Of a DNA stretch of 64,000 nt, positions 17,849-40,964 are shown in pieces. The stretch is taken from positions 1 through 64,000 of the IMG/VR virus record IMGVR_UViG_3300020460_000013; one strand, written 5' to 3'. The stretch comes from a virus (Duplodnaviria > Caudoviricetes). Numbering within the stretch: position 1 is the first letter of the stretch; every line of letters begins with the position of its first letter. The notes beneath the pieces were generated by a model. It had not been told where the DNA came from. It saw nothing but the letters and a program-made list of their open reading frames with translations, and made no database searches. The translations under genes were made by a program, and so were the position numbers.

Positions 17849-18187
17849 CTAAGTCCTCTCCATTACTCCTAAAAATGCATCTATAGCAGTTCCAGTTCCA
17901 GCTTGTACTTTTAATATATCTCCTGCTTCTAATACATATTTTTGTCCACCCAATACTTCTAGTGTAGTATTTGCTGGAATACTTACATTTTCTAAAAGTT
18001 GAATAGTAGCACCAGTTCCAGCTGCAGTTATTTGTACTATTACTGTAACAGCAGAAGTTGTTTTGTTTGCAAGTGCAAGACCAAGAATTATACCAGCATT
18101 ACCAGAACCACTTGGTGCAGTATATAATGAATCGTAAGAACCATTACTTACATTTGATTTCATTGCATTTTTAAATGTGTTTGCCAT
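17849..18187 (-). CDS. Small virion connector protein, MANTFK type (112 aa)
   Basis: Paralogue of 19628..19975 (GQKxVL..D motif). Confidence 0.75.
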   Translation of the reverse strand: MANTFKNAMKSNVSNGSYDSLYTAPSGSGNAGIILGLALANKTTSAVTVIVQITAAGTGATIQLLENVSIPANTTLEVLGGQKYVLEAGDILKVQAGTGTAIDAFLGVMERT

Positions 18188-18201: not shown

Positions 18202-18810
18202 TTATCCTAACGCAATTGCCAGAGCCGCAGCTTCATCATCTGGATCAAAGTTTAATTTAGCTCTAGTAACTGACCCATCTGCAACTGTATTTATTACATT
18301 TGTCATAGCAACATCAAGTTGCAATACTTGAATATTATTCGTTCCAGCTGGTGGAGCACTTGTAAATGTAATAGTAGAACCACTTACTGTATATGCATAT
18401 GAAGATCCATATCTTTGATATACATTATTAACAAAAACCATAAATCTACTTGCAGATGGAGTTCCTATCGGAGTTTTAGTTAAAGTAAACGCAGTTGTTG
18501 ATCCATTACCATTAAACTCATCTATGTGTGGTGTTATTTCTGGTTGTGTTAATAATTGTTTACCCATATAAACAATAAAAATTCTATGACTATTTCCAGG
18601 CGCAGATGTAAAAGTAATACTTGATACACCACCAGCTGAACCAACTGAGTAACCTACATCTGGTTCTAATATAACTCCATTTACACTTACTAATAGAGAA
18701 GCTGCAGAATTTACAACATGATCTAAACTATATTGTGTTGTAGTTCCATTACCAGTAAAAAACTGTTTTTCAAATGCACCATAGGAAGGTTGTGATCCGA
18801 TATATGACAT
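18202..18810 (-). CDS. Virion protein with two FxGxGxTT domains (202 aa)
   Basis: MSYIGSQP start, two GNGxTT..L..V.VN.V....Y....ITFTSAP domains, ends ALAIALG. Confidence 0.75.
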   Translation of the reverse strand: MSYIGSQPSYGAFEKQFFTGNGTTTQYSLDHVVNSAASLLVSVNGVILEPDVGYSVGSAGGVSSITFTSAPGNSHRIFIVYMGKQLLTQPEITPHIDEFNGNGSTTAFTLTKTPIGTPSASRFMVFVNNVYQRYGSSYAYTVSGSTITFTSAPPAGTNNIQVLQLDVAMTNVINTVADGSVTRAKLNFDPDDEAAALAIALG

Positions 18811-18824
18811 TAAATTCTACCTCA

Positions 18825-19628
18825 CTATAATTGATATCTTACTAATATTACTGCACTATTAGCTGGTGCAGAAGTAAAGGTTAATACATTACCGCTAATT
18901 GCATAATCCGTAGTTGGTCGCATCAAACTACCATTAACAAAAACAAAAGCACTATTTGTTGGAATACCAAAATTAGATAACGTAAAAGTAGTATCACTTC
19001 CATCTCCAGTAAAAGTATCTAACTGAAAATCTGTTGATCTGCGAACAATTGAACGAACTGCAAGATGTTTAATTTCTATCTCTGCATTATTATCTGGAGC
19101 TCCAGTAAATGTTAATGTATTTCCAGAAAGAGTAAAGTTCGTTGTTACTTTTTGTAAGATACCATCAACAAATACTAAAATTGAATTTACATTTGGTGGC
19201 GTTTCTGAAAGAGTATATGCAGTTGTTGAACCATCTCCTGTAAATGTATCTGTAGTAAAAGATGTTAAGTTAGGTGCAAGTTCATTTGAACCTACAGAAC
19301 CAGTTGGTGGCTTCATTGAAAATCCACCTATTCCTCTATGAATAACATAAATTGATGCAGTAACAGGAACACTACCTTGAAAATTTAATATTTTTGGTTC
19401 ACTAGATGCATTTGTTCTAATAACATATGCAACATCTGGTTGTTGAATAACATTATCCAAAACAACCATAAGATTTTCTGGATTAGCGCCAGGAACTTCA
19501 TTAGATAGTTCATATGAATTTGCATGACCATTTATCGTAGAAAGATTTGATCCATTAAAATCCTCTTTTATAAAGTTTGGTGAAACTCTATTTACAAATG
19601 GAACTCCAATGTAAGAACTATCTGACAT
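18825..19628 (-). CDS. Virion protein with three FxGxGxTT domains (267 aa)
   Basis: Repeated FTGDGS..L..LVFVDG....LTFT.AP domains. Confidence 0.75.
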   Translation of the reverse strand: MSDSSYIGVPFVNRVSPNFIKEDFNGSNLSTINGHANSYELSNEVPGANPENLMVVLDNVIQQPDVAYVIRTNASSEPKILNFQGSVPVTASIYVIHRGIGGFSMKPPTGSVGSNELAPNLTSFTTDTFTGDGSTTAYTLSETPPNVNSILVFVDGILQKVTTNFTLSGNTLTFTGAPDNNAEIEIKHLAVRSIVRRSTDFQLDTFTGDGSDTTFTLSNFGIPTNSAFVFVNGSLMRPTTDYAISGNVLTFTSAPANSAVILVRYQL

Positions 19629-19975
19629 TATGAAACGCCCTCTAGAATTGATGCAACTACATCTACTGTATTGGCTGTCGCATAAACTTGTATTTTATCA
19701 TCTGCGTTTAAGACTATCTTTTGTCCAGAAACAACTTTTAATGTTGATCCTACTGGTACTGGTGCGCCTTTTATAACATGATATGAAGTTGATGCTGAAT
19801 TATCTCTTATAAGAACTGTAACATTAACTGCACTATTACCTGTATTTGCAATATCAAGTTCTACTAAGATAGAATTAACACCACTACCACTTACAGATGA
19901 AGTATACACATCAGTAGGAGATCCACTATTAATACTTACGTTTGTTGCAAAAGCGTTTTTAAAATTATTTGCCAT
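19628..19975 (-). CDS. Small virion connector protein, MANNFK type (115 aa)
   Basis: Paralogue of 17849..18187. Confidence 0.75.
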   Translation of the reverse strand: MANNFKNAFATNVSINSGSPTDVYTSSVSGSGVNSILVELDIANTGNSAVNVTVLIRDNSASTSYHVIKGAPVPVGSTLKVVSGQKIVLNADDKIQVYATANTVDVVASILEGVS

Positions 19976-37402: not shown

Positions 37403-37798
37403 CTACAAATCATGATACCTACGATTTATAATATGTTGTTCTGCAATCTCTTCTTTAGATTGTCCATGATATTCTACTGCATGATGTTCTTCAATCATCT
37501 TTTTATTGACGTTAGTATCAAACACCCACAGTTCGCCAAGTATTCTACCAAACTTTCCTCTTCCATCTTTATGAGTTTTGATTGTAACATCTCCACCATC
37601 TAACCATTTTTTTAAAAATTCAGTTGCAGCTTTTCCATATTGTTTTTCAAATGGATCACTTGTTCTTGACTCTGGTGTATCAATACCATATAGTCTAACT
37701 CTTTGATCTCTTAACCATACACCAAACCCCAAGTCAATGTCTACATCAACTGTATCACCATCAACCACCTTTGTAACTTTACATTTGTATTCAAACAT
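37403..37798 (-). CDS. Thermonuclease (SNase family)
   Basis: VVDGDT, RVRLYGIDTPE and GKFGRILG catalytic motifs. Confidence 0.92.
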   Translation of the reverse strand: MFEYKCKVTKVVDGDTVDVDIDLGFGVWLRDQRVRLYGIDTPESRTSDPFEKQYGKAATEFLKKWLDGGDVTIKTHKDGRGKFGRILGELWVFDTNVNKKMIEEHHAVEYHGQSKEEIAEQHIINRRYHDL

Positions 37799-37808
37799 TT
37801 TATTTCCT

Positions 37809-38135
37809 TTAGTTTACACTTACAGTAGAAGCACCACCTGTCATTTTACCATTTGGCAATCCAGCATCAACACCATCTCCAACTCTTGCAACAGCTTTAC
37901 CTACAACAAAAACATTAGGACTACAAGTACCAACTATTTTTGAAGTATGTTCTATACAAGTATCGCCTACTAAAATTTCATGAGAGTCAGTAGGATCTTC
38001 TTTTCTTGCAACAAGTTTACCTTCAACAAAAACAGTTGTGTTTGCAACCTCTGATGAAGGTGCAGCTAATTTACTAGTCGCATCACAGGTATGTCCTGTG
38101 TTAAGCGGATCTTCTTCTCTACATATCTTAGGCAT
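37809..38135 (-). CDS. PAAR spike-tip protein (gp5.4-like)
   Basis: TGHTC, VFVEGKLVAR.ED..H, VFVVGKAVARVGD; likely start MPKICR at 38135. Confidence 0.88.
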   Translation of the reverse strand: MPKICREEDPLNTGHTCDATSKLAAPSSEVANTTVFVEGKLVARKEDPTDSHEILVGDTCIEHTSKIVGTCSPNVFVVGKAVARVGDGVDAGLPNGKMTGGASTVSVN

Positions 38136-39900
38136 AATACTGTGCAATCTGTCCTAATTCGGTTGTTGTTTTTCCATTGTATTGTGTTATCATATCTGAT
38201 CTATTACCAGACTCCTTACAACCAAGATGAATCCAAGGCATACCAGAACCAGTAGTTCTATATTGTAATATAATAGAATCGTGTGGTAAGTTTTCTCTAA
38301 TCCATATTGCAATCTCAAAGTATTCTCCTTTACTTGCATCTGCAACCTGTATGTCAACTGCTTCACCCAATGAATGTGCAGAAGATGTACCAGGCCTTGA
38401 TTCAAAATATCCCATGTTAATTCTTAGTTTAGGATATTCTGCAAGTAATGGATCTAAACAATTAACTGCAAGAACTCTTAAATTATTAATAATCTTTTCT
38501 GCTTCTTCTTTACTTTTGTTTATTTTCTGACCTACAGGTGGTGCAAGTGTAAGTTTAGAAAGTTTATACTTGGAAGATATGTACATATTATAATCTATAG
38601 ATCCATCATCTGGAAGTTTTATCAATGAAGGTTTTACTACTGATGTAACCTTTGCGTTTTCTGTATAAAGTAATTCTGATTGTCCAGTTGAATATCCATG
38701 TTCTTTTGGAAAGTCTGGAACTGCTGGAACTGATATTAATGGTCTTGATGCACTTTCCGAATTATAGTTACCATCAATAGAATTATAACTATAATCTGAA
38801 GATGAAGAAGGTAATGCATTTCCAGATGCAACATCAGCTTTAATATCTGCATCTGATTTCGGAATATCATCTTCACCATATACAGATTGTTCATCTGCTA
38901 ATGCACTTAAATCTTTTGCATCTAATACTGTAGCTTCTACAGGTGCGTCAACTTCTTTACCTTCACTATATAAATTTACACCAGAACTATCTCTATATTT
39001 TGTATCTTCTGCATCTTGCACAGTTCCAACACTATCACTAGGATCATTTAATTTTATAGAACCACCCACAAGCGTCAAATCATTTGTTGATAGGATATCA
39101 ATCTCACTACTTGTTTTTACTGTTATTTTAGATTTTGAATTTAAAGTAATATGATTATCAGAAAGAACTTGACTATATCCTTTTATGTTGGTAAGGTAAT
39201 TGCCTTCTGCATTAATATTCATATCTGCTAAAGATTGTAATGTCATCTTTGCCACAGATGTTGCAGTTAATTCTTTCTGTGATGTAAACTCTATAGAGTC
39301 ATTTGCATAAAATCTCATATTCTTACCAGCATGAATATTAATATTCTTACCAGCGTGTAAATCTATATTCTCGTCTACCTGTCCTGTCAAAGAACCACGC
39401 ACATATAAATCTGCATCACCATCACAGTAGACTTCAATATTTCCTCTTACTCTTAACTTTTTATTCTGATGCACAATCTCATAGTCATCACCGATAATCT
39501 TTGTAACCTTTGTACCATCTGGATGTACTTCGTAAAAAGTACCAGACCTATGATATTCATGTATACGTTCATGGCCTGGAGTATCATCAAACTCTACGAT
39601 ATGACCAGACTCAGTTTCTTTTACATGATTGTATGGATACTTTGATGCATACTGTGTTTCTGGTTCTCCTACCAGATCATCTACTCTTTGTCTTTTAAGA
39701 TTGACCACAGGGTGTTGTTTAGTTGCATCATTTACTGCAAGTCTGTTTGTATCAACTTCATTAACTCTACGAGGATAAAAAGAACGAGGATCAGCAAAAC
39801 CATTAAGAGATTGTTGAGTAGAAACTTTTAGATTTACCTCTGTACCTTTTGCTGGTGGTTTATCAAATTTGATTTTTCTTTCTTCTATTTCATATGCCAT
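38128..39900 (-). CDS. gp5: gp5 C-terminal part: beta-helix spike plus M15A-type peptidase
   Basis: GFADP..YP, YPYNHVKETESGHIVEFDDTPGHERIHEYHRSGT, beta-helix repeats, SAHSLGEAVD...WIH. Confidence 0.88.
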   Translation of the reverse strand: MAYEIEERKIKFDKPPAKGTEVNLKVSTQQSLNGFADPRSFYPRRVNEVDTNRLAVNDATKQHPVVNLKRQRVDDLVGEPETQYASKYPYNHVKETESGHIVEFDDTPGHERIHEYHRSGTFYEVHPDGTKVTKIIGDDYEIVHQNKKLRVRGNIEVYCDGDADLYVRGSLTGQVDENIDLHAGKNINIHAGKNMRFYANDSIEFTSQKELTATSVAKMTLQSLADMNINAEGNYLTNIKGYSQVLSDNHITLNSKSKITVKTSSEIDILSTNDLTLVGGSIKLNDPSDSVGTVQDAEDTKYRDSSGVNLYSEGKEVDAPVEATVLDAKDLSALADEQSVYGEDDIPKSDADIKADVASGNALPSSSSDYSYNSIDGNYNSESASRPLISVPAVPDFPKEHGYSTGQSELLYTENAKVTSVVKPSLIKLPDDGSIDYNMYISSKYKLSKLTLAPPVGQKINKSKEEAEKIINNLRVLAVNCLDPLLAEYPKLRINMGYFESRPGTSSAHSLGEAVDIQVADASKGEYFEIAIWIRENLPHDSIILQYRTTGSGMPWIHLGCKESGNRSDMITQYNGKTTTELGQIAQYYA

Positions 39901-40964
39901 TAAATTGACACTCCTCTTTCTCTCGCATACTTGGTAACAGACTTCTTTCCTATCCTTACAGCCTTTGGTGGATACTTTGGAAACTCTGATGGATAAAAGT
40001 GACCCATATCATTTGGAATACTATTCTGCATATTGAAAGCTTTAAATGCAGAACGAGCTCTTCCTTTATAGTTACTATCTCCTCTTCTTCCATCATCATA
40101 AGAACCATCTGCTCTAAATATTGTTACATCAACTGCACACGCAAAGTTGTGCCAAGAGAAGCCAGGTTTTGCAGCTTTACCCATTCTACCTGCTTTATAT
40201 TTGTTATACAATTCTTGTTGTTGTGCGTTTGTTCTATATCCAGAACCTATGCTTATATCCCAACCACTATTAGATTGAAGAAAACTATTAATACCTTTTG
40301 CAATCCTATCTCTTACAAATGGTAATAATTTATTTAATGCATTTGCAGTTGTAGTTCCTCTGGTAGATAATGGAAAGTCATTTTTAGTATATGTTCTTGC
40401 ACCAGAAAATTCTGCCGTAGAAACTTCAGTATTCATAAATGAAGAGGGTGGTGCGTTTGTTGCTTTATCTGGTATACCATCTTTAGTTACTAATACTGTA
40501 GAGTCTTGAGAACTTGCTGGTAGATCAAACTCTGATGTAACCCCATCTGCAATTACTGTGTTCTCACTTATCGTGCCTGGTTCACGATTTTGATCTTGTG
40601 AATAATCATATGGAGCTCCACCTTGAGGAGCACCATTAGGGCCTATATAGCCAGGTATTGTTCCAAACACCATAGGTTCTTGTAGAAAGTCTGGATCTCT
40701 CCAAAAACCAATTACCCATGTTCCTTCTATTGGGCCTGTCGGAGAAGTTCCTACACCACCAGCGGAAGCAGATGTACAAGGTTGAATACAAAACGCCCAC
40801 GGCAAATCTTCTGTCGCAAGTTTTGTTTTATCTGATGTATGATAACCAAATACTCTAACTCGTACTCTTCCTAGTGACATAGGATCTATACGATCTTCTA
40901 CAACACCAACCCACCAGAGAAATCCATCTCTACCAGAAAAATATGATAGTCTTTGTGTTTGCAT
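39900..40964 (-). CDS. gp5: gp5 N-terminal OB-fold plus M15B/C-type peptidase
   Basis: WWVGVVEDRIDP..LGRVRVR..G.H..LPWA; SGYRT..QQ.LY..AKPGFSWHNFACAVD...DMGH. Confidence 0.88.
   Translation of the reverse strand: MQTQRLSYFSGRDGFLWWVGVVEDRIDPMSLGRVRVRVFGYHTSDKTKLATEDLPWAFCIQPCTSASAGGVGTSPTGPIEGTWVIGFWRDPDFLQEPMVFGTIPGYIGPNGAPQGGAPYDYSQDQNREPGTISENTVIADGVTSEFDLPASSQDSTVLVTKDGIPDKATNAPPSSFMNTEVSTAEFSGARTYTKNDFPLSTRGTTTANALNKLLPFVRDRIAKGINSFLQSNSGWDISIGSGYRTNAQQQELYNKYKAGRMGKAAKPGFSWHNFACAVDVTIFRADGSYDDGRRGDSNYKGRARSAFKAFNMQNSIPNDMGHFYPSEFPKYPPKAVRIGKKSVTKYARERGVSI

Follow-up and report, generated by a model that had tools for sequence, protein, structure and literature searches.

Results

The spike gene and its parts

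The window analysed here (the whole stretch of 64,000 nucleotides, positions 1 to 64,000 of IMG/VR virus record IMGVR_UViG_3300020460_000013) comes from a T4-like marine myophage related to the OM43 phage Melnitz and to the pelagimyophages. On its minus strand the central spike protein gp5 is encoded by two overlapping genes, which we call gp5N and gp5C (Table 1), and the boundary between them falls within a small beta domain, of which each gene holds three strands. The first gene product runs from an OB-fold through three strands of this domain to an M15 peptidase; the second opens with the other three strands and continues with the GFxDP linker, the beta-helix and a second peptidase. About 187 residues and a gene boundary separate strands 3 and 4, and the domain as found here is no continuous chain. 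At the junction the gp5N stop TAA (39902-39900) shares its final A with the gp5C start ATG (39900-39898), a TAATG overlap that a preliminary description of this DNA had placed between the two parts of the spike and that is read directly in the sequence. A baseplate module fits the genes surrounding the pair.

Table 1. Features of the two-gene spike and of the fibre proteins used as reference (positions in the window; aa, amino acids).
Feature	Position	Strand	Description	Basis
gp5N gene	39900..40964	minus	354 aa; OB-fold, N half-domain, linker, M15 peptidase	open reading frame list; Pfam Gp5_OB and VanY; PHROG 430 (baseplate hub)
OB-fold core of gp5	40644..40943	minus	gp5N ~8-107	Gp5_OB (63 bits against a cut-off of 25, E 4e-17); PHROG 430 at residues 10-106 (E 6e-42)
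N half of split beta domain	40464..40565	minus	gp5N 134-167; predicted strands 1-3	hhalign columns 2-35
M15 (LAS/VanY-type) zinc peptidase domain	39903..40412	minus	gp5N 185-354, nested between the halves	AlphaFold2, Foldseek
Shine-Dalgarno AGAGGAG for gp5C	39911..39917	minus	10 nucleotides upstream of the start, within the last gp5N codons	
TAATG stop/start overlap, gp5N/gp5C	39898..39902	minus	same or equivalent junction in all relatives	sequence
gp5C gene	38128-39900	minus	590 aa	open reading frame list
C half of split beta domain	39817..39900	minus	gp5C 1-28; predicted strands 4-6	hhalign columns 39-62
GFADP..YPRR linker (follows the OB-fold in unsplit gp5)	39712..39816	minus	gp5C 29-63	Gp5_OB 76-109, T4 alignment
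Start of C-terminal trimerisation domain and triple beta-helix	39031..39675	minus	gp5C ~76-290	PDB T4 gp5, Gp5_trimer_C, DUF2345
Second, LAS-like peptidase domain	38155..38517	minus	gp5C C-terminus, residues 462-582	PHROG 894 endolysin, E 3.5e-8
Two tail-fibre-like proteins	18202..19628	minus	five intact copies of the reference domain	Pfam DUF4183, Phage_T7_tail; AlphaFold2; Foldseek

That the two genes are parts of one spike is seen in the Pfam Gp5_OB model, which is itself divided between them: its positions 10-72 lie at gp5N 44-107 and its positions 76-109 at gp5C 29-63, and everything in between therefore interrupts the OB model itself. A profile of gp5C 1-150 compared with the PDB aligned gp5C 24-55 to residues 103-133 of T4 gp5, the GFSDPTGQYPRR motif just after the OB-fold, and gp5C 76-145 to T4 gp5 375-444 (E 7e-23). 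The earlier statement that gp5C takes up the GFxDP motif again after its half-domain was thus borne out by both the Pfam model and the T4 alignment. Only about 20 residues span the distance from the linker to the start of the helix, where T4 gp5 has its lysozyme domain and this spike has none, and the Gp5_trimer_C and DUF2345 matches on gp5C lie below the Pfam cut-offs.

Conservation and age of the split

Every one of the approximately 50 IMG/VR loci with a full gp5N, at 47-99% identity, is split. The closest named relatives, four isolates of Methylophilales phage Melnitz (52% identity by tblastn), carry the same two coding sequences with the same TAATG junction. The split is a real, conserved division of the gene, and it is old. 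That the break stems from faulty assembly or sequencing, or marks a pseudogene, is a negligible possibility: about 50 independent metagenomic contigs and four cultured Melnitz isolates all show it, and both frames are intact and conserved.

The overlap of the genes in TAATG might instead point to a single fused gp5, made by programmed frameshifting or by read-through at the junction, which we regard as very improbable. Most relatives have TAATG, but TAAcATG is found in L017-L019 and ATGA in L047/L048; relative to gp5N, gp5C lies in the -1 frame with TAATG and ATGA and in the +1 frame with TAAcATG. Because the three junction types give different frame offsets, a conserved frameshift is excluded. 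Moreover, gp5C has its own ATG and Shine-Dalgarno sequence, gene callers in many independent assemblies all start it at the same methionine, and no slippery run was noticed when the junction was read by eye, a reading that included no dedicated heptamer search. With frame offsets that differ and a split that is conserved, the frameshift, sequencing-error and pseudogene readings were all rejected.

Unsplit homologues, which the preliminary description had proposed to look for, were sought in several collections, which yielded neither a fused form nor a gp5 with an intact copy of the domain. Among 5.8 billion proteins queried with gp5C 1-100 no fused form appeared (lengths 324-1033 amino acids); the 101 full-coverage matches all measured 343-687 amino acids, and a fusion would be expected at about 940. 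Nor did a profile run against 1.84 billion cluster representatives, among which the clade had collapsed to one representative plus fragments, give any protein combining OB-fold, M15 domain and helix. When all retrieved gp5 proteins were scanned with the domain profile, none outside the clade held an intact copy. Several proteins whose matches seemed to run on beyond the OB-fold (P0236, P0271, P0279, P0312 and others) were set aside, having turned out on reading to contain ordinary GFxDP linkers or unrelated inserts.

Match of the halves to intact copies of the domain

The reference for the small domain is a unit of about 65 residues that is repeated in two proteins elsewhere in the window, at 18202-18810 and 18825-19628, whose Pfam matches are DUF4183, Phage_T7_tail and DUF2460. 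AlphaFold2 modelled six strands in each copy of the intact protein, and the loop aligned with the break separates strands 1-3 from strands 4-6; this loop follows the 'VDGILQK' strand of the intact copy. The structural neighbours of the model, by Foldseek, are the N-terminal modules of CBA120 TSP4 and the N-terminal domain of T7 gp17. A scan of IMG/VR with the 267-amino-acid fibre protein gave six close relatives only, and the intact copies were taken from the protein search instead: 48 copies, filtered to at most 80% identity and drawn from homologues of that protein, make up the intact-domain profile of 65 columns. A second profile was built from the relatives' 27 non-identical pairs of N half and C half.

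Compared by hhalign, the joined halves cover columns 3-62 of the intact profile (score 43.8, E 6.9e-9, probability 95.8%). Each half alone finds its own, complementary part, the N half columns 2-35 (score 28.0, E 4e-6) and the C half columns 39-62 (score 26.3, E 8e-6), just as the preliminary description had claimed from the sequence of the fibre proteins. Joined in swapped order, the halves align over columns 39-62 only, that is through the C half (score 26.1, E 6.3e-5); the best of 60 column shuffles scored 15.0 (E 0.019) and the reversed alignment 11.8 (E 0.099). The check with a hidden Markov model of the intact domain, also foreseen in that description, came out in the same sense: 23 of the 27 joined pairs outscored all of 517 residue shuffles, the highest of which reached 10.9 bits, and the joined pairs had a median of 18.6 and a maximum of 29.4 bits. 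The joined halves of one relative (L041) match the Pfam family TIG at 22.4 bits against a cut-off of 20.9, and reach Phage_T7_tail and DUF2460 below threshold, two families that are sub-threshold for the intact copies as well; the Phage_T7_tail match of joined halves stands at E 0.005, likewise below threshold.

Beside the fibre genes we observed two small paralogous proteins, at 17849-18187 (112 amino acids) and 19628-19975 (115 amino acids) on the minus strand, both starting MAN.FKNA. Each adjoins one of the domain-repeat fibre proteins, which suggests a duplicated gene pair.

Conservation and predicted pairing of the halves

Within the N half G141, F146, P149, D154, V159 and G163 are invariant in 21 relatives; within the C half, Y3, I5, F12, P16, G19, E21 and V26 are invariant. 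The invariant residues include alternating hydrophobic positions of the strand cores (I138, F146, V157 and V159 of gp5N; Y3, I5, F12, V22 and V26 of gp5C). Mean column identity is 0.69 and 0.72 in the halves and 0.69 in the M15 domain, against 0.59 and 0.63 in the flanking linkers. Judged from these alignments, the halves are conserved like a folded domain.

This pattern bears on the possibility that the halves are relics, an enzyme module with its own stop having landed in a loop and broken the domain so that they no longer fold or contribute little, with gp5N held in place through contacts among its OB-fold, gp27 and the beta-helix, like T4 gp5*. Such an arrangement has a precedent in T4 itself, where gp5* and gp5C associate non-covalently (PMC3004832), and the spikes of two other lineages described below (L066 type and L089/P0235 type) do not have a split domain at all. 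Relics should decay, yet among sequences of about 50% identity neither half varies at its strand-core positions; conservation of the halves equals that of the enzyme domain and exceeds that of the linkers next to them, and in every member of the clade the C half lies exactly at the gp5C N-terminus. We therefore consider decay of the domain unlikely, although a structure prediction of the complex, graded as weak support only, leaves it some room.

In that prediction, gp5N 125-175 and gp5C 1-35 were given as two chains and reached interface scores (ipSAE) of 0.42, 0.35 and 0.42, against 0.02 for the best control, with a predicted local distance difference test score (pLDDT) of 66-70 for the partner and a contact agreement between runs of at least 91%. 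Of 80 solved complexes 58 attained the mark, as did 2 of 110 mismatched pairs, counts that hold roughly because our own alignments were used; at scores up to 0.60 lie 7 of the 80 solved complexes and both of the mismatches that passed. The preliminary description held that the two chains are clasped by a domain re-formed in trans. Conservation of the core and this weakly supportive prediction speak for such a pairing, by which the halves would make one domain.

The halves might also fold with another pairing, by a swap between neighbouring subunits of the trimer or by completion of one half with strands of another baseplate protein such as gp27. The spike is a trimer in which three copies of each half lie close together, and domains of this type dock fibres and spikes to other proteins in T7 and CBA120. 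The two halves nevertheless cover the full domain profile between them, leaving no part of it unfilled, and the pairwise prediction placed them together reproducibly, so that we rate a different pairing as less probable again than decay of the halves.

Peptidases of the spike

The M15 peptidase that the preliminary description had located between the halves was recovered by two routes. Pfam VanY/M15 matches gp5N 220-281 at 27.2 bits against a cut-off of 25, and AlphaFold2 models gp5N 185-354 with confidence (pLDDT 80-95). The best Foldseek match of this model is the L-alanoyl-D-glutamate peptidase Ply500 (2vo9, E 2e-7), followed by LysB4, VanXY and ChiX. H272, D279 and H322 are invariant in 21 sequences; we take them to be the zinc ligands predicted by the known SxHxxGxAxD...H motif.

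The linker and M15 module of gp5N recur as a unit in phage proteins that are not gp5 (P0336, P0363 and P0251), with 37% identity over 154 residues to P0336. The module closes P0336 and P0363, or nearly so, and in P0251 it stops about 80 residues short of the end; the N-terminal parts of the three proteins are unrelated and partly helical. By its sequence distribution it looks like a mobile enzyme cassette common to marine phages. Because it recurs at or near the C-terminus of these other proteins, the comparison suggests that a normally C-terminal enzyme cassette was put into a loop of the domain, carrying its own stop codon with it. The extra C-terminus for an enzyme, which the preliminary description saw as the outcome of the split, finds its support here in an indirect form, through the position of the module in unrelated proteins. 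An ESM Atlas feature search with the region of half-domain plus M15 gave no usable match.

The second peptidase domain, at the end of gp5C, bears an SxHxxGxAxD...WIH motif. A search with the C-terminal 220 residues of gp5C found no Pfam match and no PDB sequence match. The same domain also ends the unsplit, cyanophage-like gp5 of two relatives (L061 and L073), and the second peptidase is therefore older than the split. About 300 residues of gp5C come after the helix, at whose tip a PAAR cap would have to fit.

Other gp5 lineages at the same site

The site between OB-fold and GFxDP linker is a general insertion point for wall-degrading domains. Enzymes occupy it within a single chain in Ochrobactrum phage OC p064 (808 amino acids) and in P0264 (670 amino acids). 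In two other lineages gp5 is also divided at this topological point, with no split domain. In the L066 type (L066:3980-7325) a protein of 369 amino acids with OB-fold and VgrG3-like enzyme is followed by one of 744 amino acids with about 210 extra residues before GFVDP; in the L089/P0235 type (L089:4001-7807) a protein of 314 amino acids with OB-fold and Peptidase_M15_4 is followed by one of 952 amino acids with about 420 extra residues before GYHDP. No half domain was seen in these two lineages when their sequences were read, a reading made without a domain-profile scan. Both types have a long, uncharacterised N-terminal extension of the helix protein.

Since two lineages are split without a split domain, the clasp is no general requirement for a two-gene spike and may not be essential; the split domain is best seen as the particular solution of this clade rather than a requirement. 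In the Ochrobactrum phage vB_OspM_OC (L002) the adjacent p065 and p064 carry one and the same annotation, 'baseplate hub subunit and tail lysozyme'. On reading, p065 shows no OB-fold motif, and its annotation derives from PDB 1WTH chain D, matched by HHpred; p065 may be a gp27 homologue, p064 alone being gp5.

Neighbouring genes

A megablast of the locus against the phage collection matched no nearby DNA. Immediately downstream of gp5C, and overlapping its end by 20 nucleotides, the open reading frame list gives the PAAR-motif protein at 37809-38147 (minus strand, 112 amino acids from a TTG start). Also within the baseplate gene block is a staphylococcal-nuclease-like gene (37403-37798, minus strand; Pfam SNase, E 1e-15), and Melnitz has a 'nuclease-like protein' at the equivalent position. 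Larger open reading frames further downstream occupy the positions of the gp25- and gp6-type genes in the relative L089.

Discussion

Our best explanation of these data, to which we give somewhat better than even chances, is that the gp5 gene has become two permanently separate, translationally coupled genes, the products of which carry halves that pair into one domain. A six-stranded beta domain, of the type known from the T7 gp17 N-terminus and from the 'XD' modules of CBA120 TSP4, lies between the OB-fold and the GFxDP linker; the loop between its strands 3 and 4 holds the M15 module, and the gene break falls directly after the module. In the most likely mechanism, three strands from each chain would pair into one domain, and the pairing would link gp5N, with its enzyme, to the needle gp5C, the whole spike being (gp5N-gp5C)3. 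We infer both the re-formation of the domain in trans, with its role as a clasp, and its origin by insertion of a C-terminal enzyme module that brought its own stop codon.

Several points weigh against this explanation. The halves of the window itself are among the most diverged pairs (12.8 bits against 10.9 for the best shuffle); when joined they have no match in Pfam and reach only 2.2 bits with a hidden Markov model built from a four-sequence seed. As they match so weakly, the case rests on the family profiles. Since no unsplit ancestor of gp5 was found, the word 'split' is itself deduced from homology with the fibre copies. AlphaFold2 applied to gp5N alone returned residues 1-179, OB-fold included, at pLDDT below 50, and was uninformative for the half-domain. 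According to the prediction tool, a pass at the ipSAE level of 0.42 proves wrong in more cases than it proves right, except where the guess was likely beforehand. Two other lineages divide gp5 at the same topological point without the split domain, and in T4 the two cleavage products remain associated without a clasp (PMC3004832). The arrangement of the two genes, the relation of each half to the domain and a split that is conserved and old are established by the data.

A more far-reaching version can also be conceived, in which the domain is an obligate two-gene heterodimer serving as a mechanically releasable latch that holds the M15-bearing gp5N on the needle during assembly. As the spike is driven through the envelope the domain would unzip, and the peptidase and OB-fold hub would be freed from the beta-helix. 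Such a latch would be a genetic replacement for the proteolytic maturation of T4, having arisen by insertion of a C-terminal cassette into a domain loop. We see it as an unlikely extension, about on a par with decay of the halves.

Among the membrane-piercing devices of phages and type VI secretion systems, spikes of the gp5 type have been studied best, and the accepted route to a mature two-chain spike of this type is proteolysis. Here a whole clade of abundant ocean phages, with hosts among OM43 and probably SAR11-type bacteria, arrives at a two-chain spike by fission of the gene within a folded domain, and two further lineages have split the gp5 gene at the same topological point. Should the halves refold in trans, they would constitute a natural three-plus-three strand complementation system, of relevance to phage assembly, to the joint occurrence of domain insertion and gene fission, and to protein engineers in need of small self-assembling tags. 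An annotation can also be corrected: in Melnitz-like phages, the genes labelled 'OB domain protein' and 'baseplate hub' each encode a part of a single spike.

Comparison with known systems

With T4 gp5 the present spike has in common the OB-fold, the GFxDP..YPRR linker, the YPY..ETESGH segment, the triple beta-helix and a cell-wall enzyme. T4 gp5 is cleaved at Ser351/Ala352 into gp5* and gp5C, and the mature protein has two chains per subunit (PMC3004832). In the phage described here the two chains come from two genes and not from proteolysis of one polypeptide. The break lies before the GFxDP linker, whereas in T4 it lies between enzyme and helix; it precedes the residues aligned to T4 103-133 and falls, in T4 numbering, about 220 residues ahead of Ser351, a position away from the T4 maturation site; the M15 peptidase is upstream of the linker, where the T4 lysozyme is downstream; a second peptidase follows the helix; and the break is inside a small beta domain that T4 gp5 is without.

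The nearest counterpart is in Melnitz, in which genes 154 and 155 ('OB domain protein' and 'baseplate hub subunit/tail lysozyme') share with the present spike its two-gene architecture, its TAATG junction and its half domains (52% identity). They differ in being annotated as two unrelated-looking genes and in a longer gp5C of 667 amino acids; the terms 'gp5', 'baseplate hub' and 'OB domain' are all absent from the text of the Melnitz paper. The unsplit gp5 of vB_OspM_OC p064 and of P0264 makes use of the same insertion point for wall-degrading domains, but as single polypeptides without half domains and with other enzymes (Peptidase_M15_3 and Phage_lysozyme2).

For the small domain itself, the intact copies at 18202-19628 match the N-terminal domain of T7 gp17, the XD-type modules of CBA120 TSP4 and the Pfam families Phage_T7_tail and DUF4183. 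In T7 gp17 and CBA120 TSP4 the domain is a continuous chain, whereas in the spike it is interrupted by a nested enzyme and a gene boundary. Completion of a fold by a second polypeptide is familiar from the chaperone-usher pili, in which donor-strand complementation completes an Ig-like sandwich with a strand from another subunit. One strand is donated there to an otherwise complete fold; in the spike, by contrast, each gene product would give three of six strands, and the partners would be the two halves of one former gene.

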